Assembly (NCBI GenBank): GCA_038740895.1
Contig: JAVYLK010000006.1
Span: 1 to 24,000 of the forward strand
Direction of reading: 5' to 3'
From: Candidatus Caldarchaeum sp.
GTDB lineage: Archaea > Thermoproteota > Nitrososphaeria_A > Caldarchaeales > Caldarchaeaceae
Length of the DNA stretch: 24,000 bases
In this document: in pieces, positions 1,095 to 23,971 of the stretch
Position numbering within the stretch: the first letter of the stretch is position 1
Layout of the letters: each line of letters opens with the position of its first letter
The notes under the pieces: model-generated
What the model saw: the letters and a program-made list of their open reading frames with translations, nothing else
What the model was told of the DNA's origin: nothing
The model's database searches: none
Program-made: the position numbers and the translations under genes

Positions 1095-1518
1095 GAGCGT
1101 CGGCTCTCTTGACAAGCTTAGCGTTCAGTATGCCGTTCACGTACCTCAGCTCTCTCAAGATGGCCTCGTAGGGTAGCTTGACAGTCCGCCTAAAGCCCAT
1201 CCCGCCTTTGAGCACTAGCTTCCTTCCGAGGAGCTCTACCTTGACGTTGCTCTCCGGGCCGGGTACTTGAGCTGTGAGGTCGACCACATCTCCCTCATGC
1301 CTTATTTCGAGAAGAAAGTCATCCCACGCTGATGCGGCTAGGCTCTTGTTCAAGGCTTTGAACCAGTAGACAGCAAGACCTACTGCTAGGCCTCCCAGAA
1401 CTAGGCCTAAAAGCCCTGTCTGAAGACGTAGCATGAATGATAGAATTGCAACTCCGACTAGGAATAGCAGGAGATAGCCCAACCCGTTGAACCCGGTTCT
1501 TTTTACGTCTCTGCTCAA
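1081..1518 (-). CDS. Membrane-anchored small protein with alpha-crystallin/Hsp20-like C-terminal domain
   Basis: 145 codons. The TTG start (1518-1516) overlaps the TGA stop of the upstream gene (TTGA at 1515-1518). Two hydrophobic N-terminal helices (GLGYLLLFLVGVAILSFML; LLGLVLGGLAVGLAVYWF). About 75 aa then fit the ACD pattern (DVVDLTAQVPGPESNVKVELLGRKLVLKG...RRTVKLPYEAILRELRYVNGILNAKLVKR). Confidence 0.55.
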   Translation of the reverse strand: MSRDVKRTGFNGLGYLLLFLVGVAILSFMLRLQTGLLGLVLGGLAVGLAVYWFKALNKSLAASAWDDFLLEIRHEGDVVDLTAQVPGPESNVKVELLGRKLVLKGGMGFRRTVKLPYEAILRELRYVNGILNAKLVKRADAPTTS

Positions 1519-4310
1519 TCCACGACCACCCTCACGTACCTAAGCACAGTTATTCCCGACTGCTGATATACTGCGCCTAAATATAAGCTATCGCCAGAAA
1601 TCCAGTGGACTATAATAGCACCGTAATTCCTCCAAGACTCCGTGAATGACTGGAAGGTCTGTCTAATTTTCTCGAAATCCCTTTCGACGGTGTAGTTTAA
1701 GACTTCATGCTTGTAGACTATGTTGGCGTTGACCGTGTCGACGGCCTCGCCTCCCAGCCCGAGCTCCGTCAGCAGCTTTCTAAGGTTTTCAATCTTGGCT
1801 TCACGCGTGAGTGCGGCGGTGGGGGGTGGTGGTTGTTCGCCGAGCAGCTTCAGAAGATAGTTTCGGAATGCTTCGTCGATTGTATTGCCGAGACCCACGT
1901 AGTAAAGGCCCGTGAACGCAGCGCCCACAACCGCTATCGTTCCGATCTGCGTGACCACCCCCTCACCCTCTCTCGCTGTGTAAACAGGTATGACGTAGAC
2001 GGGATGGTCGCCGACCTCGTAGAAGATTGTTTCACCGATTCTTGGCGAGGCTAGCAGGGTGCTTAACGTTCTGAAGGCTGGGTCTCTCTGAAGAGCCTGA
2101 AGAGCCGCTGTGGGGCCTAGAAGCTTGATGGGCGAGTCGGGGTCTACCTTGTAGAAGTACATCTCACCCGTGTGGGGGTAGTCGTTGCGCACCACGGCGT
2201 AGCCGGCCAGGTTGAGCCCTCTAGCCCCCCTCAGCTCGAGCGACAGGATGCCGATGAACTCGAGGCTGTTCATGTTGGGCAGCCTTGCTTGAACGAAGTA
2301 TACGTCTACGCCTTGAGGAATCTCGTAAAACTCTCGGGCCTGTATGAATATGGCTGGGTCGTTGATGTGGTACAGAGAAAACTGCCTTATCTGGTATGAG
2401 AAGAGCTCCGCAGGATACCTGAGCTGGTTTTCAAGCCATTGTGGAACATCATCCTTCACGTAGTCAGAGTAGACTGTTTTGAACAGCTTGGTGAAAAAGT
2501 CGTTGCCCAGCGTAATCACCTCTATCGAGCCATCGTAGACGTCCACCAGCGCTATGCCGACGAACCTGACGAGGGGGTTCTCACGAGACCACGGAGTCTT
2601 GTCGGTTGGCAGGGAGATGATGAGCGGCATCATCCAGTAGGTTTTGACGCCGTCGGTGACCGGAAACATGTCGACGTAGTCGTTTCCTAGGAAGTATGTG
2701 AAGTAGGGGAAGAGCAGGGATACTCTGTCGTGGACGTCCCGATACCTTAGTAGTGTTATGCTGCGGTCTGGGTAGCTGAGGAAGAAGGTGATGTCGTACA
2801 GCCAGCTTAGCGGGGGCCCTACCAAGACTCCGCCCTTGCCGTTGTAGACGGCTCGGCCTATCTCGTCGGGTGTTTCCTTTCCATTTATGATCGCTGCCCA
2901 TGTTGCTGAGAAGAGGCTTCGGGCTCCCCCCTCACCGTAGTATATTCTCCTCTCCTTGAAAAACTGGGAGCTGTCAACCACTTCTCCCGTGTGCGCGTCG
3001 AGCATCAGGAATCCCTGGGGGATGTGGGTGTAGACGAGATGCCTGTTGTACCAAAGGTCGGCGCTAGTCACTGTAGCGGGCAGGACGGGCTTCATCGAGG
3101 CGCTCCAGTAGAGCGTGCCGTTGAACCGCAGTATGTCCGAGTCTTCAAAATCTATGTAGGGGATGAGACCGATCTCTGGCCTGAGTTTGGCAAAGGCGGC
3201 GCTCCAGTCCCACAGCCTCGTTCGTTCGAGTATGTTCATGCTTGACCGGGTGATTGAGTCGACTTCAAACGCTTGTACCTCCATCTTGCTGAAGTTGTAT
3301 GGGAGAATCTTAACCCTCAAGTCTGACAAGTACCTGTTGACCATGATCTCCTGCATCACATAGGGGCCTCTGTACTCGATCTTCTGAGCGTCTGCGATTG
3401 TGTTCTGAACAGTCACGATGGAGGCTGTTGAGAGAGCGATTATGACAATCAGCCCTGCTCTGAGGTAGATGTTGTTCAACAGCCTTCTTCCGGAGTAGTC
3501 TAGGTACCCGTAGAAAGCTAAAACCCCTGAAGCTAGGAAGCATGCTATTATCAGCACGCGTGTGTTGTAGTCGATGTAGGTGCTGAAGAAGAGGTTGAAG
3601 CCGGTCCATGCAAGACCGAGCGCTGCGAGGAATTGTATCGTCGAGGCTTTAATCGTAATCATGCCAGTCTCGCCGAACGAGATCAAGGCTTTTGTGAAAA
3701 CCTTGACTATGTTCGTCAACCCGATTAATAGCAGGAGCCTTACGCCGATGGCGCTGAAGATAGGCGGTATCAGGAGTATGAGGGCTGGAGAGGATTCGAT
3801 TACTGCTTCTGCGCCTACTGTCTCGCCGGGCTTGAAGGGCATGAAGGGGAGTAGTAATATCCGTTGTATCTGGCTCAGGCCTGTCTCCCAGCCGTTTAGC
3901 CATGCCAGGAAAGACATGCCGAAAACGCTGTTGGAGAAAAGGAAGGTTCCCAGAAGGAGTTTGGTCAACTGCCATGCTGTGAAGGTCTGAACCGAGAGGC
4001 GGAACCTTTCGAAGTCAAGCATCCTCGTTGAAAAACCACCCCGGAGCATTATGAGCAGAGACCTCAGAGCCCATATCGTCACCGATTTCCTAGATCTGAA
4101 ATCCAGCCTGAACAGCGCTATGAACGAGAGCACGAGGCCTCCAACGATGGAGAAGTAGAAGGGTCTTATGAAGAGGTCTCCGAACTCTACGATGTTAAGG
4201 TAGACGTTCAGGAATGAGCTTCCCACCAATCCGGTCAGAAGGAACGCCACCAGAGCGACGGCAAGCGCCGCCGTGAACCGCGTCCTCCTACCCCTCGATA
4301 CATACACCAA
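1515..4310 (-). CDS. UPF0182 (COG1615)-family large polytopic membrane protein, function unknown
   Basis: 931 codons with a TTG (4310) or GTG (4307) start. The N-terminal ~300 aa hold at least 7 hydrophobic helices, followed by a large soluble region. Motifs DLWYNRHLVYTH and QLRYPAELFSYQ match what I recall as conserved in UPF0182 proteins (actinobacterial members have WINRHTVYTH and LRYPEDLFKVQ). Confidence 0.65.
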   Translation of the reverse strand: MVYVSRGRRTRFTAALAVALVAFLLTGLVGSSFLNVYLNIVEFGDLFIRPFYFSIVGGLVLSFIALFRLDFRSRKSVTIWALRSLLIMLRGGFSTRMLDFERFRLSVQTFTAWQLTKLLLGTFLFSNSVFGMSFLAWLNGWETGLSQIQRILLLPFMPFKPGETVGAEAVIESSPALILLIPPIFSAIGVRLLLLIGLTNIVKVFTKALISFGETGMITIKASTIQFLAALGLAWTGFNLFFSTYIDYNTRVLIIACFLASGVLAFYGYLDYSGRRLLNNIYLRAGLIVIIALSTASIVTVQNTIADAQKIEYRGPYVMQEIMVNRYLSDLRVKILPYNFSKMEVQAFEVDSITRSSMNILERTRLWDWSAAFAKLRPEIGLIPYIDFEDSDILRFNGTLYWSASMKPVLPATVTSADLWYNRHLVYTHIPQGFLMLDAHTGEVVDSSQFFKERRIYYGEGGARSLFSATWAAIINGKETPDEIGRAVYNGKGGVLVGPPLSWLYDITFFLSYPDRSITLLRYRDVHDRVSLLFPYFTYFLGNDYVDMFPVTDGVKTYWMMPLIISLPTDKTPWSRENPLVRFVGIALVDVYDGSIEVITLGNDFFTKLFKTVYSDYVKDDVPQWLENQLRYPAELFSYQIRQFSLYHINDPAIFIQAREFYEIPQGVDVYFVQARLPNMNSLEFIGILSLELRGARGLNLAGYAVVRNDYPHTGEMYFYKVDPDSPIKLLGPTAALQALQRDPAFRTLSTLLASPRIGETIFYEVGDHPVYVIPVYTAREGEGVVTQIGTIAVVGAAFTGLYYVGLGNTIDEAFRNYLLKLLGEQPPPPTAALTREAKIENLRKLLTELGLGGEAVDTVNANIVYKHEVLNYTVERDFEKIRQTFQSFTESWRNYGAIIVHWISGDSLYLGAVYQQSGITVLRYVRVVVD

Positions 4311-4367: not shown

Positions 4368-5936
4368 CTAGTGCTCCAACCCCTTCCTCAACCCTAGGTA
4401 GACCGCAAAAGCTAGGGCTGGAATAATCAACAACGCTGCAAGCGTGTTGGGCAGCGGAATCGTTGGCTGAGGCTGCTTCATCACCTCGTCAAGGTATTCG
4501 ACGTAGTCCGATAGCCATCTCTCGGACACGGACGACGCTCCTGTTAAAGCCTGCCAGCCGACCAAGACCGTTGGCGTTGAGAAGCTCAGTAAAAACCCGT
4601 AAGCACCTGCTGGAAAAGCCGCTACACCGAGTGTTAGGCAGGCGGCGGCTAGGCCGGCGGGTTTGTTTACGGCGGTTAGCCTAGTTAGGCTGTATGCTGT
4701 GAGGCATGCGAGCGCTGGTACTGCCTGGGCTAGGAACCTGTACTCGAAGTGTGTGAAGAAGAATACATAGGGTATGGAGACTCCTCCCCAGATGACCAAG
4801 GGCCTTGCTTCGACGACTCGGTTTTTCAACACGAGCACGCCGCCCAGCAGCGATAGAGCTAGGATCGGCGTCGTCAGAAGCTGGGGGGTTGTGCTAGCCC
4901 AGACCGACGCCCGCTCAAAGGCGCCCAACCCGGTGCGAGCTATGTCGTTTCTAACCATGATGGAGTGAGCAACAGGTCTTGACAGAACCCCTCTTCCAGC
5001 TATCTGGTACTCATCCCCGAGCCTAACGTTGTCGAGAAAGTACGGGTAAAGGACGATTATGCATAAGACAACAGCTAGTAGGATGTCGAAGAATCTCTCC
5101 TCGATGCTCGGCCTGCGGGATACGAGGTTTTTCTGCTCAGCTATCTTGTACACAGCCAACGTTGCGAACAACGCTACAAACGTAATGAAAACAGGGAACA
5201 CCCTGTCTAGCAAAACAACTGTGGCGATGTCGGACAGGTACTGGAGAAACACTTCCTGGGTTAGTGAGACGGCGAGGTAGGCCGTCAAGCCTAGGAGGAC
5301 GAGTGCTAGGACCTTGAGAAGCCTCGAAGTCTTTGCAACCCAGATGAGAAACAACGCCAAGACAGGTATGAGGAGGAGGTTCTGGTCCCTCGCCAGTATG
5401 GCGACTGACATAAGGATTCCTGAAAGCCACATGTAAGGACCGTACCTCAGGCCTAGGGAGAAGGACGCCAGCGCTAGAAAAGCTAGGATAGAGCCCAGCG
5501 AATCTGTCAGGATGTAGGAGGTTGTCAGGACGAAGTAGTCATGCACAACCAGCATCAAGGCGGTGAGGAAGCCTGTCAAAAAACTCTTGAAGATCTTTGA
5601 AGTTAGGAGGAAGACGGCCACGACGCCGGCCGACACCGTCAAGGGTGATATTAGCCTAGCTGTCTCGACCGGCAGGCCCGCCGTGTAAAGGAGAGCGAGA
5701 AGCCACCAGAAAAGCGGAGGCCTCTCCTCGGCGTAGGGCCCCCTTGCTTGGCTTGGTTCTATCCGGCCGCTGGCTATGAGGGCGTTGTTTATGTATGCTT
5801 TGTCGTCCCAGAAGGGTGCTTCGTTGACGAGGGCTGGAGGGAGGTAGAACGCTAGTGAAAGAAGAAAAACAGCCAGCGATAGAATGTAGTGTTTACGGGT
5901 TTTCAGCGATAGCTCGACTCCATGCAGCATGGTCAA
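4368..5936 (-). CDS. GT-C fold glycosyltransferase (PMT_2/ArnT-like, GT39/GT83-type) membrane protein
   Basis: 522 codons with a TTG (5936) or ATG (5930) start and more than 10 hydrophobic helices. The first loop has an acidic motif (APFWDDKAY), followed by ERPPLFWWLLALLY, typical of dolichyl/undecaprenyl-phosphate-sugar dependent GT-C enzymes. Confidence 0.6.
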   Translation of the reverse strand: MTMLHGVELSLKTRKHYILSLAVFLLSLAFYLPPALVNEAPFWDDKAYINNALIASGRIEPSQARGPYAEERPPLFWWLLALLYTAGLPVETARLISPLTVSAGVVAVFLLTSKIFKSFLTGFLTALMLVVHDYFVLTTSYILTDSLGSILAFLALASFSLGLRYGPYMWLSGILMSVAILARDQNLLLIPVLALFLIWVAKTSRLLKVLALVLLGLTAYLAVSLTQEVFLQYLSDIATVVLLDRVFPVFITFVALFATLAVYKIAEQKNLVSRRPSIEERFFDILLAVVLCIIVLYPYFLDNVRLGDEYQIAGRGVLSRPVAHSIMVRNDIARTGLGAFERASVWASTTPQLLTTPILALSLLGGVLVLKNRVVEARPLVIWGGVSIPYVFFFTHFEYRFLAQAVPALACLTAYSLTRLTAVNKPAGLAAACLTLGVAAFPAGAYGFLLSFSTPTVLVGWQALTGASSVSERWLSDYVEYLDEVMKQPQPTIPLPNTLAALLIIPALAFAVYLGLRKGLEH

Positions 5937-7138: not shown

Positions 7139-9520
7139 ATGGCGGTCTCCAAGCTTTTTGGAGCCCGTGTAAAAAGGCGTGAAGACCCTCGGCTTCTTAC
7201 GGGGATGGGAAAGTTCACGGCAGACCTGAGACCTCCCAACTGTCTCCACGCTGTGTTCGTCAGGAGCAGCAAGGCTCATGCCAAGATCCGCAGGGTAAAC
7301 GTGGACGAGGCTTACCGGGTGGAGGGGGTTGTGAAGGTTTTGACGGGGGCTGATCTGTCTGACGGGCTTGCTCCTATTCCGTGCGCATGGCTCATTCCTA
7401 ACTCGGGTCTCAAAGTCCCACGGTACACCGCTCTAGCGGTTGACAGAGTGAGGTTCGTGGGAGAGCCTTTCGCAGTCGTCGTAGCGGATTCTTACTACGC
7501 AGCCGTTGATGCTGCCCAGCTAGTCTCTCTCGAGTACGGATCGATGGATGCAGTGGTAAACCCTGAGGAAGCCGTGAAGCCAGGAGCTCCGCAGCTGTAC
7601 GACGACATCCCAAACAACACGGCGTTCACATGGCGGGCTTCAGGCGGGGAGATGGATGAGGCGTTTTCCCAAGCAGACCACGTCGTCAAGACCAAGATGG
7701 TGAACAGCAGGCTTCAGCCGACGGCGCTTGAGACACGTGGAGCCGTCGCCGAATACAACAGGCTTACGGGCGAGGCGACCGTTTACATGACTTCGCAGAA
7801 CCCCCATGTTCACAGGCTTCTCCTCTCCATCATCACCGGCATTCCGGAGTCGAAGCTTAGGGTCGTAGCTCCTGACGTGGGCGGAGGGTTCGGAAGCAAG
7901 ATTCAGTGCTACCCTGCCGAGGCTGTTGTGCTGCATCTCGCCAGAATGACGGGAAGACCCGTGAAGTGGGTAGAGACAAGGGAGGAGAACCTAAAGTCAA
8001 CCATACACGGCAGGGACCATGTCCAGTACGTCGAGGCAGCAGCTACGAAGAACGGCGAGGTTCTCGGGCTCAGGGTGAAGTCTTACGCCAACCTGGGGGC
8101 CTACCTATCGACAGCAGCCCCCGGAGTACCCACGATTCTTTTCGGAACGATGCTCAGCGGCCCCTACCGAATTAAGGCCGTCTCAGCCGAGGTCGTCGGC
8201 GTTCTGACGAACACGGCCCCCGTCGACGCATACAGGGGTGCCGGCAGGCCTGAGGCCACCTACTTGCTCGAGCGTGTCATGGACCTAGTTGCGAGAAGAG
8301 TCGGGCTCGACCCGGCTGAAGTGCGTTCACGCAACTTCATACCTTCGAACATGTTTCCTTACACAGCCCATCCAGCTGGGCTGACGTACGACAGCGGAGA
8401 CTACCACAAGGCGTTTAATCGAGCTTTGGAGCTGGCGGATTACTGGAATATGAGAAGGAGGCAGGCGGAGCTTAGGAGTAAAGGCAGGCTAGTTGGGTTG
8501 GGTATTTCAAGCTACGTTGAGATATGCGGGCTTGGACCCTCTTCCGTCGCCAGGGGGACCGGGTTCGGGCTCGGCCTCTGGGAGAGTGCAGTTGTGAGGG
8601 TGCATCCGACTGGGAAGGTTAAGGTTTACACGGGGGCAAGCCCCCACGGACAGGGCGAGGAGACGACGCTGGCTCAAGTCGTAGCCGACCAGCTTCAGAT
8701 ACCTTTTGAAGACGTCGAGATAATCCACGGGGACACCGAGATGACTCCATTCGGTCTCGGAACTTACGGCAGCAGGACGACGCCCGTGGCGGGCGGAGCC
8801 ATAGCTACGGCGTGCCATAAAATCCTGTCGAAGGCGAAGAAGGTGGCGGCCCACATGCTGGAGGCGAGGGAGGAGGACATCGAGTACGAGAGCGGCAGGT
8901 TTTACGTCAAGGATGCGCAGGACAGAGCGAAATCGTTTGCGGAGGTGGCCTACGCATGCTACGCAGCAGGTTCGAACGAGCTTCCGAGCGGGCTTGAGCC
9001 GGGGCTGGAGGCCAGCGTGTTCTACGACCCGCCCAACTTCACTTTCCCGTTCGGAACTCATGTCTGTCTCACGGAGGTCGACCCTGAGACGGGCAGAGTC
9101 TCAATCTTGAAGTATGTTGCAGTTGATGACTGCGGAAGAAGGATAAACCCGATGATAGTCGAGGGCCAGATACACGGAGGAATAGCTCAGGGAGTTGCTC
9201 AAGCTCTGTACGAGGAGGCTGTGTACGACACGGCGGGAAACCTGCTCACAGCCAGCTTGAACGACTACCTCGTCCCCTCAGCCTGTGAAGTACCCAGCAT
9301 CATCTCCGACGAAACCATCACACCATCGCCGTCAAACCCTCTCGGCGTGAAAGGGGTAGGGGAGACGGGAACCATCGCTTCAACTCCAGCCGTCGTCAAC
9401 TCGGTGGTCGACGCCCTGTCGCATTTAGGCGTCCTCCACATAGACATGCCGCTGACGCATGAGAAGGTGCTGAATGCTTTGAACCCTAGACGGCATCACA
9501 GCGGGCCCGGTGGGACTTGA
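7139..9520 (+). CDS. Xanthine dehydrogenase/aerobic CO dehydrogenase family molybdopterin-binding large subunit (form II CoxL-like)
   Basis: 793 codons. N-terminus GARVKRREDPRLLTGMGKFTADL. Active-site loop AYRGAGR (nt 8228-8248) is the form-II type, not the form-I AYRCSFR. GHGQGEETTLAQVVAD and DDCGRRINPMIVEGQIHGG are typical of the family. Confidence 0.85.
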   Translation: MAVSKLFGARVKRREDPRLLTGMGKFTADLRPPNCLHAVFVRSSKAHAKIRRVNVDEAYRVEGVVKVLTGADLSDGLAPIPCAWLIPNSGLKVPRYTALAVDRVRFVGEPFAVVVADSYYAAVDAAQLVSLEYGSMDAVVNPEEAVKPGAPQLYDDIPNNTAFTWRASGGEMDEAFSQADHVVKTKMVNSRLQPTALETRGAVAEYNRLTGEATVYMTSQNPHVHRLLLSIITGIPESKLRVVAPDVGGGFGSKIQCYPAEAVVLHLARMTGRPVKWVETREENLKSTIHGRDHVQYVEAAATKNGEVLGLRVKSYANLGAYLSTAAPGVPTILFGTMLSGPYRIKAVSAEVVGVLTNTAPVDAYRGAGRPEATYLLERVMDLVARRVGLDPAEVRSRNFIPSNMFPYTAHPAGLTYDSGDYHKAFNRALELADYWNMRRRQAELRSKGRLVGLGISSYVEICGLGPSSVARGTGFGLGLWESAVVRVHPTGKVKVYTGASPHGQGEETTLAQVVADQLQIPFEDVEIIHGDTEMTPFGLGTYGSRTTPVAGGAIATACHKILSKAKKVAAHMLEAREEDIEYESGRFYVKDAQDRAKSFAEVAYACYAAGSNELPSGLEPGLEASVFYDPPNFTFPFGTHVCLTEVDPETGRVSILKYVAVDDCGRRINPMIVEGQIHGGIAQGVAQALYEEAVYDTAGNLLTASLNDYLVPSACEVPSIISDETITPSPSNPLGVKGVGETGTIASTPAVVNSVVDALSHLGVLHIDMPLTHEKVLNALNPRRHHSGPGGT

Positions 9521-9730: not shown

Positions 9731-10510
9731 TTATCTGTAGGCCCAGCCGACGAGGCTTTTCTCAAGCAGCGCGAAGACGAGGAAAAGGCTTATCCCTAAG
9801 AAGGATATGACCAGCAGGCCTGCGAAGACCAGCGGGACGTCAAACCTTGAGCTGGCCGCTATCATCAAGTATCCAGTGCCTTCGTTGCTCGCAACGGTTT
9901 CGGATATGACTGCGCCCACGAACGCCAGCGTCGAAGCTACCTTGAGAGAGCCGAAGAAGTAGGGCAGGGAACGCGGTATGCCTATTTTGACGAATATCTG
10001 GCTCTTCGACGCTCCTAGCGAACGGAGGACGTCCCTTATCTCTGGCTCGATTGTCGCTAAAGCGATGGCCACGTTGACAACAATCGGGAAGAAAGAGATG
10101 AGGAAAGCTGTTAGTATGGCCGGCACCTTGCCGACGCCGAGCCATATTACTAGGATGGGGACTATCGCCACCTTCGGAATCGTGTTGAAAGCTACTAGTA
10201 GTGGGTAGACAGCCCGGTAGACCACGATTGAGTATCCGACGGCTAGGCCGAGGCCGAGGCCGAAGACTATCGACATGCCGAAGCCTATCAAGGTTGCTTC
10301 GAGCGTGGCGTACGAGTGCTTGATGATTATGTCGAGGTTTTTTTCAAGCGAGTAGATCACCCTCGTGGGGGGTGGTAGGATGAACTCCGGTATGTTGAGG
10401 GCAATAGTGACAGCTTCCCAGCCGACGAAAAACCCGACGAAGACAAGCACTGGGAGACCATATTCCTTGAGGGCAGAAGACACAAGCGACGAGACCGGCT
10501 GCTTAGCCAT
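9731..10510 (-). CDS. ABC transporter permease (NitT/TauT, SsuC/TauC-like)
   Basis: 259 codons with 6 hydrophobic helices. Binding-protein-dependent transport motif region: EPEIRDVLRSLGASKSQIFVKIGIPRSLPYF. The ATG directly abuts the stop of the upstream ATPase gene. Confidence 0.85.
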   Translation of the reverse strand: MAKQPVSSLVSSALKEYGLPVLVFVGFFVGWEAVTIALNIPEFILPPPTRVIYSLEKNLDIIIKHSYATLEATLIGFGMSIVFGLGLGLAVGYSIVVYRAVYPLLVAFNTIPKVAIVPILVIWLGVGKVPAILTAFLISFFPIVVNVAIALATIEPEIRDVLRSLGASKSQIFVKIGIPRSLPYFFGSLKVASTLAFVGAVISETVASNEGTGYLMIAASSRFDVPLVFAGLLVISFLGISLFLVFALLEKSLVGWAYR

Positions 10511-11296
10511 TCACTTCACCTGTATCATTTCCCTGAGGCTGTGAGTCATGTTCACAAACCTCTCCTCGTAGCATATGTCTAGCTCCCGAGGTCTTTCGAA
10601 CCTAGGCTCAACCACGCCGATGATTTTACCAGGTCTCCTGCTCATGACGTACACCTTGTCCGACAGGTAGAGGGACTCCCTGAGGTCGTGGGTGACCATC
10701 ACGACCGTGCATCTTGTCCGGAGCCATAGGCTCTGAAGAACGTTCCAGAGCTCTTCACGGGTAAACAGGTCGAGGGCGCCGAACGGCTCGTCGAGCAGGA
10801 GTATTGCTGGGTCGTGGATTAGCGCTCTGCAGAGCGAGACCCGCTGCTGCATCCCGCCAGATAGCTCCCACGGCTTTCTTTCTGAGAACCCTTCCAGCCC
10901 TACGGTCTTGAGCAGGTTTAGAGCCTTCTCAACGTATTCTTTTTTCTTGTCGTTAAACCTGGACTTGTGGGGTTCGACGACCTCGAGAGGAAGCAGCACG
11001 TTCTGGAGCACTGTTCTCCAAGGGAGCAGCACAGGGTTTTGGAAAGCCATGCCAACGATCGAGAGCGGCTTCTCGACGAGGTTGTTGTTGACGTAAACTC
11101 CACCCTCGGTGGGCTTGATCAAGCCTGCTATGAGCTTCAACACGGTCGTCTTCCCACAGCCGCTGGGCCCGACGATGGAGGTGAAGCTGCCCTCCTCCAC
11201 ACGGAGGCTTACTTTCTCAAGAGCCTTGACCGAGACGAAGGTCCTAAACCCCGACTTCGAGAGATACTCCAGAGAGACGTTCTTTAACTCTATCAA
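10511..11296 (-). CDS. ABC transporter ATP-binding protein (NitT/TauT, SsuB/TauB-like)
   Basis: 261 codons with a TTG start. Walker A GPSGCGKTT, signature LSGGMQQRVSLCRAL, Walker B ILLLDEPFGALD, H-loop VTHD. Confidence 0.9.
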   Translation of the reverse strand: MIELKNVSLEYLSKSGFRTFVSVKALEKVSLRVEEGSFTSIVGPSGCGKTTVLKLIAGLIKPTEGGVYVNNNLVEKPLSIVGMAFQNPVLLPWRTVLQNVLLPLEVVEPHKSRFNDKKKEYVEKALNLLKTVGLEGFSERKPWELSGGMQQRVSLCRALIHDPAILLLDEPFGALDLFTREELWNVLQSLWLRTRCTVVMVTHDLRESLYLSDKVYVMSRRPGKIIGVVEPRFERPRELDICYEERFVNMTHSLREMIQVK

Positions 11297-11323
11297 GCCG
11301 ACATCATAAAAATAGGGAGGTTT

Positions 11324-12370
11324 TTAAATGGTTCTCTGTTCCTTGGGCGGCAGGAACCTGTCGGTGAACACTTCGTCCGGCGAGGGCGTCCTAGGCAGGT
11401 TGAAAGCCTCGACCACTGATTTGATCGTCCTCTCCAGCCTGGCCCTGTCAACAGCTCCCAGCCCGTTCCTACGAACCTCCTCCGTCACGATGTTGTCCTT
11501 CAACGCCAGCTTGAGCCTCTCGAGCTCGACGTTCCTGTCAACCGTCGGGTCTTTCCGCTTGACAAAGTCGGCTCCAACGTCCGGGTTTGCTATCACTTCT
11601 TTCAACGCCTTGTTGAAAGCCCTGATGAACCCAGCGACTGCTTCGGGGTTGGACTGGATGAAGTCCTTCCGAGCGACGATGGCGTTGCCGTAAAGCTCGA
11701 CGCCGAAGTCGGTGTACTTGAAAGCCGTTATTCTGTCAGGGTCGACTTTCAGGGCTACAAGGTTGAGGTAGCCTGTGTAGTAGAAGCCGGTGATGGCGTC
11801 AACCTCTCCCTGTACGAGCGAAGGCTCCCTGAGAGCTGGCGACATGCTGACCCACTGCACTTTGGAGGCATCTATGCCCGTTGCCTTGGCGAACACGGGG
11901 AACAGCCTTCGCGGAGCATCTCCTTCGGGAGCGCCTATCTTCTTCCCTTCAAGGGCCTTGGGGTTCGTTATGCCTTTGTCCTTTAGAGTTATCACCGAGT
12001 AGGGTGGGTTGTTGAGAACCATGTAGACGGCGACAAGCTCCTGCCCGGGGTTTTTGACGTTGAACTCTATCAAGGCGTCGATGCTGCCGTACCCCATCTG
12101 GTAAGCCCCTGAAGCAACCTTGGTAATTGTGTCGGCTGAGCCGTAGCCTCTGTCCATGATGACCGCCAACCCCTCTTCGACGAAGTAGCCCTTCTCCAGA
12201 GCAACGATGAAAGGCGCCTGAGGCCCTTGCACAGCCCAGTCGAGCACGAACTTCACGGAGACTATTCTAGGGGCTTGAGTCGGCATAACGACGGGGCTCA
12301 GGAAAATTCCAGCAACCAACCCGACAACTAGGAAGACGCCGGCTGTGGCCAAAAGTTTTCCCGACACCAT
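11324..12370 (-). CDS. ABC transporter substrate-binding protein (NMT1/THI5-like, SsuA/TauA family), membrane-anchored
   Basis: 348 codons. An N-terminal anchor helix is followed by VKFVLDWAVQGPQAPFIVALEKGYFVEEGLAV...GYGSADTITKVASGAYQMGYG, the NMT1/SsuA pattern. Confidence 0.8.
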   Translation of the reverse strand: MVSGKLLATAGVFLVVGLVAGIFLSPVVMPTQAPRIVSVKFVLDWAVQGPQAPFIVALEKGYFVEEGLAVIMDRGYGSADTITKVASGAYQMGYGSIDALIEFNVKNPGQELVAVYMVLNNPPYSVITLKDKGITNPKALEGKKIGAPEGDAPRRLFPVFAKATGIDASKVQWVSMSPALREPSLVQGEVDAITGFYYTGYLNLVALKVDPDRITAFKYTDFGVELYGNAIVARKDFIQSNPEAVAGFIRAFNKALKEVIANPDVGADFVKRKDPTVDRNVELERLKLALKDNIVTEEVRRNGLGAVDRARLERTIKSVVEAFNLPRTPSPDEVFTDRFLPPKEQRTI

Positions 12371-15745: not shown

Positions 15746-16324
15746 TTATGTTATGAACTGCCCTCCCTCGACGTCCGGCATCTCTCTCTTCAGACGCTGC
15801 GCCGCTATCTCCGAAGCCTCCTTGAGAATAGCTTCAGCCTCCGGGTCGGAGACGCTGTACCCAGTAACTGTGTCAGACACAGTTCCCACGCTGACTGAAA
15901 GGTCGTCTAGAAGGTCTTGGACTCCTCTAAGACCGTGGGATATCTCGGGCATCACGCCTCCGACGTCTTTCTGTACAGCCATGACCACTGCGGCTACAGG
16001 TCCGATTACCTTCTTCACCTCGTTGTAGTCTTTGACGGCTTCAAGCCTAAGTACAACTCCCTCGAGGGAGGCTTGGCTTCTTACGGTGGCGTGCATCATC
16101 TTCCTCAGCTGGGCCAGCTCATTGGCGTAGACGGCGGCTCTCTCGTTGTCCTTCTCCATCTTGGCCCGGACTACTTGGTTGAATATCTCCCTACCCCTCA
16201 TCTGCATCGAGCGTGCTTTAGAGTCCATCCTGTTCTGGATAGTCATAAGCCTAGTTATGATCTCGGTCATCTTCTCATCGAACGGCGGCTTTGGCGGTTG
16301 TTTTTTGCGGAAGAATCTTAGCAT
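15746..16324 (-). CDS. ESCRT-III/Snf7 superfamily-like coiled-coil protein (tentative)
   Basis: 192 codons with an ATG start. Basic N-terminus MLRFFRKKQPPKPP. The helical hairpin region is rich in K/R (ARSMQMRGREIFNQVVRAKMEKDNERAAVYANELAQLRKMMH...LEGVVLRLEAVKDY). The C-terminal half is acidic and ends in an amphipathic helix (DPEAEAILKEASEIAAQRLKRE). The layout resembles CHMP/Vps24-type proteins. Confidence 0.45.
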   Translation of the reverse strand: MLRFFRKKQPPKPPFDEKMTEIITRLMTIQNRMDSKARSMQMRGREIFNQVVRAKMEKDNERAAVYANELAQLRKMMHATVRSQASLEGVVLRLEAVKDYNEVKKVIGPVAAVVMAVQKDVGGVMPEISHGLRGVQDLLDDLSVSVGTVSDTVTGYSVSDPEAEAILKEASEIAAQRLKREMPDVEGGQFIT

Positions 16325-16433
16325 CTGTCTCGGCGTACGCCCCGGCTGATGAGTAAAAAGGTTATCGTGAGCATCTTGGATTGATGTTGTGCGGGTATTA
16401 TCCCGGAATGTTCTCGAAAAATAAGAATGGGGT

Positions 16434-16994
16434 TTAGGTTTTGCTCCGCCACGTCAGCAGGTAGGCGAGTCCTCCGAGCAGCACTCCAGCTGCTAGAACG
16501 AAGATGAATGCAGCTATCCAGGTTGGATAGCCCAGCGGTATTCCGTAGAATATGTTGACGTGCACTTGGCCCGCATTCCACCCACGTCCTCCAACCTCGA
16601 CCGGAAGCATGGCAGCCCCTCCCAGATAGCCGCCAATCATCATCATCCACGTAGCTCCTACGACGCCGACGTTCATCAATATGAGGTGGAGCCATGCCAA
16701 GGTGTTTGCAACACCCTTGAAAGGCTTGCCTAGGACGTTTTCGATGTAGTGGTAGAAAAGGGCTGTCACCGCTACACCCATCACCCCGACAATCAAGTAT
16801 GTCGTGTACCCTACTGTGAACCAGTTGCCGGCGCTTCCGAAGGCGATGACCCTGCTGAACTCAGGCCTCATGAACCCTAGCTGCCCTATCACCCAGAACA
16901 ACGTCAGCCCTGTCGCAAGAGCGCCCTGCACGATCGCAGCCGATATGAACCTAGAAGCCCACTTTGAAACCAAAACTTTCTGGGACACGTCCAA
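16434..16994 (-). CDS. Hypothetical polytopic membrane protein (about 5 TM helices)
   Basis: 186 codons with a TTG (16994) or GTG (16988) start. Consistently hydrophobic segments, and a TATA-like TTATTAAATAATT at ~17014-17026 upstream. I recognise no family. Confidence 0.5.
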   Translation of the reverse strand: MDVSQKVLVSKWASRFISAAIVQGALATGLTLFWVIGQLGFMRPEFSRVIAFGSAGNWFTVGYTTYLIVGVMGVAVTALFYHYIENVLGKPFKGVANTLAWLHLILMNVGVVGATWMMMIGGYLGGAAMLPVEVGGRGWNAGQVHVNIFYGIPLGYPTWIAAFIFVLAAGVLLGGLAYLLTWRSKT

Positions 16995-17333: not shown

Positions 17334-17361
17334 CCTTAGTAGCCTATAAGAGCGGCGACAA

Positions 17362-17436
17362 GCCCTGGTAGCTCAGCCCGGTTAGAGCGGCCGCCTCGTA
17401 AGCGGCAGGTCGAGGGTTCAAAGCCCTCCCAGGGCT
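17362..17436 (+). tRNA. tRNA-Thr (anticodon CGU), intronless
   Basis: GCCCTGG-TA-GCTC-AGCCCGGTTA-GAGC-G-GCCGC-CTCGTAA-GCGGC-AGGTC-GAGGG-TTCAAAG-CCCTC-CCAGGGC-T. Length 75 nt. T-runs follow at 17444-17463. Confidence 0.95.
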
Positions 17437-18075
17437 TCATCTTGTTTTGGGTTTTGATGCTTTTATGACCCATGGTGTCCAGACGTTTTCTAGGGCTTTG
17501 GCTCGGTGGATGGTGTTGAGGATTATGACGGAGGGGATTAGGCTGAATGCCGTGTGGATGATGTTGTAGACTGCTGTGAAGAAAAGGACCAGCAAAAGGC
17601 CTTGGAGGTCTGCTGCTAGGCTTATGCCTAGGAAAGCTGAGAGCATCATCGTTGCGAAGTTCAGGAATTCTGGGAACATCATCACGAGCACGACGTAGTT
17701 GGCAGCGGTGAGGATCATCACTCTCACTGCAGTTCCCACAACTGCTCCTCCTCCAACCATGGTTCTGAAGCTCCGCCCCGACATCAGCCTTGATCCAGCC
17801 CAGAGCCCCATCAGCGAGGAAAACACAGCCAAAAACTTCAGCGTTGGGCCGACGGGAGTAAACTCGCCGACAGCCAGAAGAGCCATGTAGTATATCACAG
17901 CTGCCAGAAACCCTGACGCTGGGCCGAACCCCAGCAAGGCCGTGAAGACAGGTATCTCAGCAGGGTCGAACCTTAAGTATGGTACCGGCGGGAACGGGAA
18001 GCTCAACGGAAGCACAGCTAGGACGAGGGCAAGCGCAGCCATCGAAGCGCCTGAAGTTATGGTTGTGAGCCTCAT
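17437..18075 (-). CDS. ECF-transporter S-component-like membrane protein (substrate unknown)
   Basis: 212 codons with an ATG start. LSFPFPPVPYLRFDPAEIPVFTALLGFGPASGFLAAVIYY matches the pattern I recall for RibU-type S components (FP.P..PFLKFD.S.IP.LL...L.GP..G). No EcfA/EcfT gene is adjacent. TATA-like TATTAAAAA (complement of 18100-18109) lies ~29 nt upstream. Confidence 0.55.
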   Translation of the reverse strand: MRLTTITSGASMAALALVLAVLPLSFPFPPVPYLRFDPAEIPVFTALLGFGPASGFLAAVIYYMALLAVGEFTPVGPTLKFLAVFSSLMGLWAGSRLMSGRSFRTMVGGGAVVGTAVRVMILTAANYVVLVMMFPEFLNFATMMLSAFLGISLAADLQGLLLVLFFTAVYNIIHTAFSLIPSVIILNTIHRAKALENVWTPWVIKASKPKTR

Positions 18076-18137
18076 TTCCGCAAGGACGAAGGTTGTTGGT
18101 TTTTAATAGGTGTTGAGTACCTACGTAGAGTCTTTTC

Positions 18138-19346
18138 ATGCTTAAAACCCGAGACTTAAATAGAATACAAGTGGATGCCAAGATGCAGATGAAGGCTTCT
18201 GACGTTATGATGACCGAGTTTCCGTCGGTCTACGAAAACGACCCGCTGACCAAGATAATCGGGTTTTTCATGGAGAGAAGAGCAGACGTGGTTGTGGTGC
18301 AGGAGCAGACTGACAACAAGCTTCTGGGGATAGTGACGAAGAGGTCCATCCTGAAGCCGAACCTCAACCCCTCCACGGTTCTGGCCAAGACGCTGGCTGT
18401 CAAAACTCCGAGGATACTCCCCTCGGACAACCTCGAGAAGGTGGCTTCTCAGATGCTTGAGAAGAACCTCAAAGGCATACCCGTGACTTCTGGAGGCAGG
18501 CCTGTTGGGCTTGTCGCAGCAACTGACGTCATACTCAACTCGCAGAACTCTCTCGGCAAGGTCGAGGTAGGGCAAGTAATGACCAAGGACGTCATTACAA
18601 TCGGCTCGAACGACACGATAGGCAAGGCCATTTCGCTTATGCGGGATGAGGGCGTATCGCGTCTTCCCGTTGTTGAGGGCGGCAGGCTGGTTGGCATCGT
18701 CACCGTCTCGGACATAGCTGAGAAAGTCATAAAACCCAGGATCAAGGCGTCGTGGGGGGATGTCGTCGGCGAAAGAGTTAGGACGTTGAGCAACCCTGTC
18801 AAGAGCATAATGACGAGGAACGTTATAACAACTCAGCCTAGGGAGAAGATAGTGTCGGCCGTCGAGCGGATGAAGGTCCACGGCTTGTCATGCCTTGTGG
18901 CGACTGAGATGAACAGGGTTGTGGGTATATTCACTTTGATGGATGCTTTAGAACCGTTGGTGGCTAGGCAAGAGGGTGAGAGGAGGACCATCTCGATAGA
19001 GGTGAGCTACAAGCTGGAAAGAGTTGACATGGACGTCAAGGAGAGCGTGCTCGAAGTAGCCGAGAAATTCGTGCAGAGGTTCCGGAAAACACTAGGCCAC
19101 GGCGTTCTGAGCCTTTACTTCAAGGAGCACAAGGAAAAACACGGAGACCTCAAGCTCATCCACTGCAGGGCGAGACTGAACTCCGACAGGTATCAGTTTG
19201 TCGGCATCGGCGAGGCCTGGAGACCTGACTTGGCGGCGAGAACTGCCCTGAAGGTAATCGAGAGGCAGTTCCTCGTGAGGAAAGAGCTGGCGTCCAAGTA
19301 CCCCTACGGAAGAGAGTTCTTCGAAAGCCTGACCGGAGCCTACTGA
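18138..19346 (+). CDS. Four-CBS-domain protein with a non-CBS C-terminal domain (HPF/RaiA-like by eye)
   Basis: 402-codon ORF. An alternative ATG at 18183 sits 24 nt downstream of TATA-like CTTAAATAG (18155-18163). Four CBS motifs: ASDVMMTEFPSV...LLGIVTKRSIL; ...PVGLVAATDVIL; VGQVMTKDVITI...LVGIVTVSDIA; VKSIMTRNVITT...VVGIFTLMDAL. The C-terminal part (nt ~18987-19343) is described under findings. Confidence 0.85.
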   Translation: MLKTRDLNRIQVDAKMQMKASDVMMTEFPSVYENDPLTKIIGFFMERRADVVVVQEQTDNKLLGIVTKRSILKPNLNPSTVLAKTLAVKTPRILPSDNLEKVASQMLEKNLKGIPVTSGGRPVGLVAATDVILNSQNSLGKVEVGQVMTKDVITIGSNDTIGKAISLMRDEGVSRLPVVEGGRLVGIVTVSDIAEKVIKPRIKASWGDVVGERVRTLSNPVKSIMTRNVITTQPREKIVSAVERMKVHGLSCLVATEMNRVVGIFTLMDALEPLVARQEGERRTISIEVSYKLERVDMDVKESVLEVAEKFVQRFRKTLGHGVLSLYFKEHKEKHGDLKLIHCRARLNSDRYQFVGIGEAWRPDLAARTALKVIERQFLVRKELASKYPYGREFFESLTGAY

Positions 19347-19519
19347 CCCTTCTCCTCCTTCATCATGGCCAAGTATTCGTCAACCTCCATCTCGATGATT
19401 AGGGAGCCGACGTATCCGCATGACCCACACCTGTAAACCTTCCCGAGATAGCCTCCAAGATGAAGGTCGATGCTCGTGCCCTTGCAAGAAGGACAGACCT
19501 GAACAACTTTCTTCTTCAA
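19340..19519 (-). CDS. Small zinc-ribbon protein (59 aa), absent from the supplied ORF track
   Basis: Hand translation of the minus strand gives (M)KKKVVQVCPSCKGTSIDLHLGGYLGKVYRCGSCGYVGSLIIEMEVDEYLAMMKEEKGQ*. The TTG start (19519-19517) overlaps the TGA stop of mrp (19518-19516) as TTGA, with GAGGA a few nt upstream. Two CxxC pairs give a zinc-ribbon signature. At 59 aa it is shorter than every entry in the track (minimum 60 aa). Confidence 0.55.
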   Translation of the reverse strand: MKKKVVQVCPSCKGTSIDLHLGGYLGKVYRCGSCGYVGSLIIEMEVDEYLAMMKEEKGQ

Positions 19520-23557: not shown

Positions 23558-23971
23558 TTATTTCAATGGAACATACATGCTGCTTCTTGTCGCGCCTACG
23601 CCAGCCCTGCCGTGGACGACTTTCTTGTTTGTGACGACGTATTCGCCGAGCCTGTGGCCGATCATCTCAGGAACGATCTCGACGGGCTGAAACTCCTTAC
23701 CGTTGTGAACGTGGATGGTTAACCCGACCATCTCGGGGATTACAACCATGTCCCTGCAGTGTGTCTTAATCGGCTTCTCAAGCCTCTGCCCCGACTCTAG
23801 AAGCTTCCTAGCCTTACGCACCTTGACCAACAGCTTGGACTGCGCAGGAGTGAGCCCTCTCTTGTAGAGGCTTCTCCTAGCCCTGCTGGGCAGGAGCTTT
23901 ATCACTGCATCCATGCTCATGGACGTGAGCTGCTCGACAGTGTAGCCTCTGTAGGTGAACTCCCGAACCAT
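23558..23971 (-). CDS. rps19p: 30S ribosomal protein uS19 (S19P/S15e)
   Basis: 137 codons. [11 protein letters not shown]...[12 protein letters not shown]...[54 protein letters not shown] is the archaeal/eukaryotic uS19 signature. The ATG overlaps the stop of an upstream ORF (TAATG). Confidence 0.95.

Follow-up and report, generated by a model that had tools for sequence, protein, structure and literature searches.

The gene and its start codon

We analyzed a 24,000-nt window (the whole stretch of DNA under study) at the beginning of contig JAVYLK010000006.1 of a Candidatus Caldarchaeum sp. (GCA_038740895.1) and found on its forward strand a gene whose product displays four tandem CBS units followed by a C-terminal HPF/RaiA-like domain (Table 1). 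This gene, termed hibA below, very probably encodes the orthologue in Candidatus Caldarchaeum of HibA (= AHA), a factor for ribosome hibernation in archaea that is built of two modules. The whole protein is colinear with chain H of PDB entry 9sr9 (392 aa, deposited as ‘Dehydrogenase’; residues 20–398 against 6–388, E = 2.4e-57 in a sequence-based PDB search), which is the HibA of Pyrococcus abyssi as seen by cryo-electron microscopy (cryo-EM) in the tRNA and mRNA sites of the 70S ribosome (PMC13324472). The present analysis establishes the architecture, the fold and the homology to this solved protein, together with the retention of an extended loop and of the nucleotide-site motifs.

A preliminary description of this DNA had assigned the gene to an open reading frame (ORF) at 18138..19346. 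This mechanical ORF of 402 codons is present on the forward strand as given, but its start at 18138 is almost certainly wrong. A search of a large protein collection recovered more than 60 full-length homologues of 385–390 aa, mostly from Candidatus Caldarchaeum and other Nitrososphaeria/Aigarchaeota metagenome-assembled genomes (MAGs), at 98% to about 40% identity, with more distant copies in haloarchaea and other lineages; the ORF is therefore real and not a chance occurrence. In a genome scan, the window is 98% identical to the MAG QQ_201912_bins_79 and 96% to JZ-3_201907_bins_57. All homologues start at the position of M16 of the 402-aa ORF. When the upstream DNA of four Caldarchaeum genomes is aligned, ATGCAGATGAAGGC at 18183, i.e., the ATG at that position and the bases downstream of it, is invariant, whereas the ATG at 18138 is unconserved, with AAC in its place in one genome (L002) and an indel and a TAG stop in another (L003). 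Because the homologues begin at M16 and only the downstream ATG is invariant, the true start is almost certainly ATG 18183, which gives a protein of 387 aa plus the stop codon.

Table 1. Features of the hibA locus. Residue numbers of features, models and motifs, here and in the text, follow the 387-aa protein. PTC, peptidyl-transferase centre; ECF, energy-coupling factor.
Feature	Position	Strand	Residues	Basis or remarks
hibA gene, revised start	18183..19346	+		invariant ATG; homologue lengths of 385–390 aa; full-length match to 9sr9_H (E 2.4e-57)
CBS1	18189..18353	+	3–57	Pfam CBS stretch; AlphaFold2 secondary structure
CBS2	18378..18536	+	66–118	Pfam CBS stretch; AlphaFold2 model
CBS3	18561..18725	+	127–181	best Pfam CBS stretch; ribose-binding-type motif G171-x-x-T174-x-x-D177
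Extended loop after CBS3, VIKPRIKASWGDVVGERVRTLSN	18726..18794	+	182–204	counterpart of the HibA ‘PTC loop’ and AHA ‘loop 3’
CBS4	18795..18974	+	205–264	motif G248-x-x-T251-x-x-D254
HPF/RaiA-like domain with family-typical long β2-β3 hairpin FKEHKEKHGDLK	18981..19298	+		AlphaFold2, Foldseek, profile matches, PF02482 in relatives
C-terminal tail helix YPYGREFFESLTGAY	19299..19343	+	373–387	helix 376–386 in both models, at lower confidence
In-frame 15-codon ORF extension, probably promoter and leader DNA	18138..18182	+		upstream ATG lost in L002, indel and TAG in L003; holds the TATA-like box
TATA-like box CTTAAATAGA	18155..18164	+		centre ~24 nt before ATG 18183; invariant in four aligned genomes
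Second invariant A/T box TTTTTAATAG (+ strand letters)	18100..18109	-		~29 nt from the divergent ECF S-component start at 18075
ECF S-component ORF	17437..18075	-		ECF_trnsprt at 28.2 bits, just under the Pfam cut-off of 30.7
tRNA-Thr (CGT)	17361..17438	+		abuts the 3′ end of the ECF S-component ORF, with a 2-nt overlap
Zinc-ribbon ORF, 59 aa, CPSC-x18-CGSC	19340..19519	-		TTG start overlaps the Mrp/NBP35 stop; convergent 7-nt overlap of its 3′ end with the hibA stop

The CBS module and its nucleotide-site motifs

The four tandem CBS motifs that had been read from the sequence are recovered by Pfam as four CBS stretches (E = 4.7e-43), the best of which is CBS3, and the full-length AlphaFold2 (AF2) model likewise shows four CBS units. 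In an alignment of 45 homologous sequences, to which all conservation values below refer, the most conserved columns are those of the G-x-x-T-x-x-D motifs in CBS3 and CBS4: G248 is the sole invariant column, G171, D177, T251 and D254 are kept in at least 90% of the homologues and T174 in 89%. By homology to the characterized orthologues, the predicted Caldarchaeum protein probably has its binding site for AMP, ADP or ATP where CBS3 and CBS4 meet. At this interface, the CBS module of HibA binds AMP, ADP and ATP with dissociation constants of 12, 65 and 113 uM, respectively, by isothermal titration calorimetry (PMC13324472), and AHA, whose tetrad is homologous to AMPK-gamma, carries two AMP molecules (PMC12934967).

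The extended loop between CBS3 and CBS4 aligns without gaps and at equal length with P. abyssi residues 186–208. Its family-conserved residues, P185, R186, K188, G192, G196 and E197, define the motif P-R-x-K...G-[DE]-x-x-G-E-[KR]. The predicted local distance difference test (pLDDT) score of the AF2 model drops at residues 196–198, as expected of a loop that would become ordered on the ribosome. In P. abyssi HibA, the loop formed by residues 190–207 wraps a PTC adenine that is universally conserved (PMC13324472).

Structural comparisons of the predicted CBS tetrad with Foldseek returned as the best match the ribosome-bound SriA of the Methanosarcina acetivorans 70S ribosome (9znf_4; E = 6.7e-23), followed by MJ1225, Dri and AMPK-gamma, over about 265–300 aligned columns. 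The full-length model searched against the PDB (Foldseek library to 2026-04-08) matched CBS-tetrad proteins only, and the HibA entry 9SR9 was not among the matches. These results could be read as pointing to a CBS-only hibernation factor of the Sri, ARC or single-lobe Dri type, with the C-terminal domain being incidental. We regard this as extremely unlikely, since the HPF-like domain present here is lacking in Sri, ARC and Dri proteins, and Dri carries two tetrads; moreover, published phylogenies derive the HibA/AHA CBS module from a SriA-like (CM-5) ancestor, which explains the similarity of the tetrad to SriA.

Some database names, e.g., ‘Inosine-5′-monophosphate dehydrogenase [archaeon HR01]’ or, for the PDB molecule, ‘Dehydrogenase’, suggest an enzyme related to IMP dehydrogenase or a subunit of some other metabolic enzyme. 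The protein does match TIGR01302 (IMP_dehydrog) at 52.5 bits, but the match is confined to residues 88–200, i.e., a CBS pair, and lies far under the cut-off of 481.5 bits; all NCBIfam matches of the whole protein are likewise sub-threshold and driven by the CBS units. Neither the sequence (by Pfam) nor the AF2 model contains a catalytic barrel. We therefore give an enzymatic role virtually no chance, and an identity as IMP dehydrogenase or any dehydrogenase is ruled out by the domain content.

The C-terminal HPF/RaiA-like domain

The region following the CBS tetrad had been described as a non-CBS segment of ~115 aa with the β-α-β-β-β-α layout of bacterial HPF. Consistent with the first point, Pfam is empty in the last 119 aa. 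For the second, we obtained AF2 models of the full-length protein (45-sequence alignment; pLDDT 85.8) and of the isolated C-terminal domain (26-sequence alignment; pLDDT 87.9, predicted template modelling score 0.77). Both models display a strand at 270–277, a helix at 283–304, strands at 307–320, 323–334 and 338–345, a helix at 348–372 and a tail helix at 376–386, and the domain is accordingly predicted to adopt the β-α-β-β-β-α fold. These elements fall on the very segments that had been picked by eye, namely ISIEVSY, the DVKESVLEVAEKFVQRF helix, GVLSLYFKEHKEKH, LKLIHCRARLNS, YQFVGIGE and RPDLAARTALKVIERQFLVRKELAS. The tail helix aligns with the tail of P. abyssi HibA (residues 379–388), which touches h23, uS7, uS11 and eS28 at the mRNA exit side (PMC13324472).

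When the isolated domain is compared against the PDB with Foldseek, the first 28 matches are all HPF, RaiA/YfiA/pY or plastid PSRP1-type factors, such as 5mmj_y (E = 4.6e-7, template modelling (TM) score 0.66), 5zep_x from M. smegmatis, the V. cholerae HPF 4hei_A and the E. coli HPF 2rql. Unrelated folds, such as double-stranded RNA-binding domains (dsRBDs), appear only from rank 29. A sequence profile of the domain matches 9sr9_H (E = 1.4e-19) and 9l96_a (E = 2.4e-13), and reaches bacterial HPF chains in weak near-full-length matches (4v8h_AX, E = 0.005; 6h4n_x, 0.016; 2rql_A, 0.017), with RaiA at about 0.05. The profile alignment pairs FVG-GE-W...AAR.AL..IERQ of the family with HASAEGQDMYAAIDGLIDKLARQL of HPF; in the alignments to the three HPF chains, it thereby reproduces the parallel between FVGIGEAW-RPDLAAR... 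and HPF that the preliminary description had drawn. In addition, the Pfam family PF02482 (Ribosomal_S30AE) is directly matched by 8 of 26 family members, with a best E-value of 4.7e-7. With both a match to HPF and the anticipated fold found, the original reading of this domain survives.

Membership in the HibA/AHA family

The Caldarchaeum protein shows several features that characterize HibA and AHA, namely four tandem CBS units in two Bateman modules, an HPF-like domain, full-length colinearity and the extended loop after CBS3. A pairwise alignment with P. abyssi HibA gives 36.6% identity for the CBS module and 28.4% for the HPF domain; the gaps are small, and those in the HPF domain are of single residues only. 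Accordingly, the PTC loop and, within the HPF domain, both archaeal insertions (β1-α1 and β2-β3) are retained at the same lengths, whereas the E. coli-type HPF shows a 6-residue gap at the β2-β3 hairpin against the family profile. A second full-length match is chain a of 9l96, a 406-aa ‘CBS domain-containing protein’ (E = 1.3e-36), which is also found in entries 9l98, 9l9c and 9l9v. Its chain naming suggests a ribosome entry and its acidic composition a haloarchaeon; a literature search for the codes 9L96, 9L98, 9L9C and 9L9V found no relevant paper. Some homologues are labeled in JGI as ‘CBS domain-containing protein/ribosome-associated translation inhibitor RaiA’.

The preliminary description did not recognize the fusion as a described family, and this statement is outdated. 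HibA of P. abyssi (PAB0961/Q9UYR4; PDB 9SR9 series) and Thermococcus barophilus (F0LKU5) was made public as a bioRxiv preprint in October 2025, and the journal article followed in April 2026 (Madru et al., Nat Commun 2026). It is reported from 47% of archaeal genomes, with every major lineage represented, and the genome list takes in Caldarchaeales (PMC13324472). AHA of Haloferax volcanii (HVO_2384) followed in February 2026 (Souza et al., bioRxiv; PMC12934967). The fusion of a CBS tetrad with an HPF domain has thus already been described structurally, biochemically and genetically and is not novel.

The proposal of a ribosome hibernation role was sound, being confirmed for the orthologues by cryo-EM, in vitro inhibition and knockouts (PMC13324472, PMC12934967). 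HibA's C-terminal domain lies in the channel for mRNA and tRNA on the 30S subunit, like bacterial HPF, and its CBS module takes up three positions on the 50S subunit, one at the PTC, another close to uL5 and a third at the L1 stalk; translation in extracts is inhibited by HibA but not by its CBS module alone, which makes the C-terminal domain necessary for inhibition; and deletion of hibA in T. barophilus doubles the lag phase and leaves about 60% fewer 70S ribosomes in stationary phase (PMC13324472). AHA similarly places its CBS tetrad on the 50S subunit with loop 3 in the PTC and its HPF domain on the 30S subunit, and its knockout has a survival defect (PMC12934967). By homology, the Caldarchaeum protein would likewise bind ribosomes, inhibit translation and bind adenylates.

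Ribosome contacts and the proposed mechanism

We mapped the contact list of P. abyssi HibA (Supplementary Data 1 of PMC13324472) onto the Caldarchaeum protein. The rRNA contacts identical in the C-terminal domain are Y312, E318, K319, R331, D335, R361, L364, E368 and L369. In the PTC loop, 9 of the 15 contacts are identical or similar, and the P. abyssi Y195, which stacks on A2834, corresponds to W191. P. abyssi R347 and R292 are replaced by I342 and S288, respectively. Among the residues of the HPF domain, L332 and E344 are strongly conserved in the family, and the HibA authors also place the conservation mostly in the domain cores (PMC13324472). The window further encodes uS19 (23558..23971, minus strand; 137 aa), which ends in ...SSMYVPLK. 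In P. abyssi, the uS19 tail S126-M-F-V-A-V-K132 pairs with strand β13 of HibA, the first strand of the HPF domain (PMC13324472), and the tail SMYVPLK encoded in the window resembles its P. abyssi counterpart SMFVAVK.

Several observations weigh against a HibA-like function of this protein. Only 9 of the 31 C-terminal rRNA-contact residues are identical to those of P. abyssi, and 16 of the 31 are identical or similar, which is no better than the 28% average of the domain. P. abyssi F325 and R326, which hold A1461 and uS12, are H320 and G321 here. The C-terminal 119–121 aa of the window's own protein have no Pfam or NCBIfam match even at E <= 10, and the PF02482 gathering score is not reached, so that the link to HPF is drawn from the fold, the family profile and the relatives. 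Only the orthologues from P. abyssi, T. barophilus and H. volcanii are known to bind ribosomes, inhibit translation and preserve the 70S form. Finally, the idea that adenylate sensing is coupled to ribosome silencing holds up in part: the CBS module of HibA binds AMP more tightly than ADP and ATP, but neither AMP nor ATP altered the ribosome occupancy of HibA in reconstitutions (PMC13324472). Energy sensing by adenylate binding is thus only partly established in the HibA family; for comparison, the CBS-only ARC complex is reportedly released by ATP.

The moderate conservation of the ribosome-contact residues could also suit a CBS-tetrad regulator with a repurposed HPF-like domain, which would bind other RNA, protein or DNA off the ribosome in the manner of HhpR. 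The protein shows a weak NCBIfam similarity to this CBS-tetrad transcription factor (48.8 bits; cut-off 520), dsRBD folds occur among the weak Foldseek matches from rank 29 on, and pull-downs in Thermococcales have recovered HibA along with proteins of replication and recombination. However, HhpR-type (CM-3) proteins have no HPF domain, the match to a factor observed on ribosomes is colinear over the whole protein, both the PTC loop and the β2-β3 hairpin are retained and conserved, and the structural matches ahead of the dsRBDs are all ribosome-bound proteins of the HPF family. On this balance, we consider a regulator acting off the ribosome very unlikely.

As a HibA orthologue, the Caldarchaeum protein is predicted to act on both ribosomal subunits. 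Its C-terminal HPF/RaiA-like domain would bind the small subunit at its decoding region and mRNA-tRNA channel, involving h44, h18, h24, h28 and h31 together with uS12, uS9, uS7, uS11 and uS19, and would there shut out mRNA as well as tRNAs at the A and P sites. The N-terminal disc of four CBS units would occupy tRNA space on the large subunit, from where the long loop after CBS3 could enter the PTC. With the HPF domain on the 30S and the CBS disc on the 50S subunit, one polypeptide would bridge the two and preserve idle 70S ribosomes; we posit that this single chain clamps them together, keeping the ribosome silent and its active sites protected up to the resumption of growth.

Putative promoters and genomic neighborhood

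The in-frame extension upstream of ATG 18183 is probably untranslated promoter and leader DNA. The TATA-like box that it holds lies at the spacing expected of an archaeal TATA box driving a leaderless mRNA, i.e., ~24 nt before the start. We infer that this box is the promoter of a leaderless or near-leaderless hibA mRNA, and that the second A/T box is the promoter of the divergent ECF S-component gene. The intergenic region between the two divergent genes spans 107 nt, and in the four Caldarchaeum genomes both boxes are invariant and the bases flanking them vary. The position of each box, ~24–29 nt from one of the two start codons, suggests back-to-back promoters giving rise to leaderless mRNAs.

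Besides this divergent upstream neighbor, hibA is flanked downstream by a convergent ORF for a 59-aa zinc-ribbon protein (Table 1). An operon of hibA with functionally linked genes was considered and rejected, there being no adjacent co-oriented neighbor, and hibA appears to be monocistronic. No further CBS or HPF gene is found within the window. Beyond the zinc-ribbon gene lie genes for an Mrp/NBP35 Fe-S ATPase, a PUA protein, tRNA-Leu, a SnoaL-like protein and uS19; farther upstream lie tRNA-Thr, a Snf7/ESCRT-III homologue and leucyl-tRNA synthetase (LeuRS).

The zinc-ribbon gene stands beside hibA in all six Caldarchaeales loci examined (Caldarchaeum, Pelearchaeum and C. subterraneum; 55–97% identity), despite rearranged flanks, whereas in four other lineages hibA lacks this neighbor. 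Its product matches no Pfam family above threshold; in the PDB, it comes closest to a small zinc-finger protein built into the 70S model of Pyrobaculum calidifontis (9e71_Bc), at E-values of 0.0014–0.003 that are too weak to call homology. A role as a partner or modulator of HibA that is ribosome-associated and specific to this lineage is conceivable, which we deem very unlikely; convergent orientation and plain lineage synteny explain the pairing equally well.

The Snf7/ESCRT-III (CdvB-like) homologue and a 125-aa ORF without a Pfam match lie in that order at 15746..16695 on the minus strand, beside LeuRS. In the Pelearchaeum loci L004 and L005, the Snf7-LeuRS block directly adjoins the pair of hibA and the zinc-ribbon gene, which indicates a local rearrangement between the genera. 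Elsewhere in the window are a 931-aa UPF0182-family protein (1515..4310, minus strand), a 522-aa ORF without a Pfam match (4368..5936, minus strand), the large subunit of a molybdopterin-binding enzyme of the aldehyde oxidase/xanthine dehydrogenase family (7139..9520, plus strand) and an NMT1/ABC transporter cluster (9731..12370).

Significance and comparison with known systems

The assignment carries little weight as a discovery, the fusion having been published and reported in roughly half of the archaeal genomes. It supplies a correct name and a corrected start for Caldarchaeales MAG genes that are annotated as ‘CBS domain-containing protein’, ‘dehydrogenase’ or ‘IMP dehydrogenase’, and adds one more divergent orthologue of the solved protein. 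Taken with the alignment of 45 sequences, this orthologue helps to separate the conserved positions, namely the PTC-loop motif, the CBS3 and CBS4 motifs, the E-K of the β2-β3 hairpin, R331 and R361, from lineage-specific contacts. It is also a case in which a reading of raw sequence by eye recovered a true function, one that is experimentally confirmed in the family.

Of the known systems, the tetrads of AMPK gamma and MJ1225 share the four-CBS disc fold (E = 1e-17 to 1e-22), and the adenylate sites at CBS3/CBS4 correspond to the AMPK-gamma sites 3 and 4 (PMC12934967); AMPK-gamma, however, regulates a kinase rather than the ribosome and has no HPF domain. The tetrads of SriA-D, ARC-A,P and Dri are close structural matches (9znf_4, 9zng_7, 9e7f_3), and their post-CBS3 loop also reaches into the ribosome. 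They differ from the Caldarchaeum protein in having no HPF domain, and the double-tetrad Dri binds the PTC in the opposite orientation; across genomes, Sri, ARC and Dri are largely mutually exclusive with HibA (PMC13324472, PMC12934967).

The bacterial and plastid HPF, RaiA (YfiA, pY) and long HPF proteins share the β-α-β-β-β-α fold of the C-terminal domain (TM scores of 0.6–0.67) and a weak full-length profile similarity, and the HPF domain of the characterized HibA and AHA occupies the same 30S site as bacterial HPF (PMC13324472, PMC12934967). In bacteria, HPF/RaiA is standalone or carries a C-terminal dimerization domain, whereas here the domain sits C-terminal to a 265-aa CBS tetrad and has a β2-β3 hairpin and a last helix of greater length as well as an additional tail. 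AHA of H. volcanii belongs to the same family under another name, its likeness being drawn from the published description; 9l96_a is likely a homologue of this halophile type. HibA of P. abyssi shows the same architecture and length as the Caldarchaeum copy, with four CBS units, the PTC loop, an HPF/RaiA-like domain with the archaeal insertions and a C-terminal tail, and differs from it in being 28–37% identical and in coming from another lineage than Caldarchaeales (Thermoproteota/Nitrososphaeria_A). The present copy is an ordinary member of the family, and nothing in it departs from HibA/AHA.

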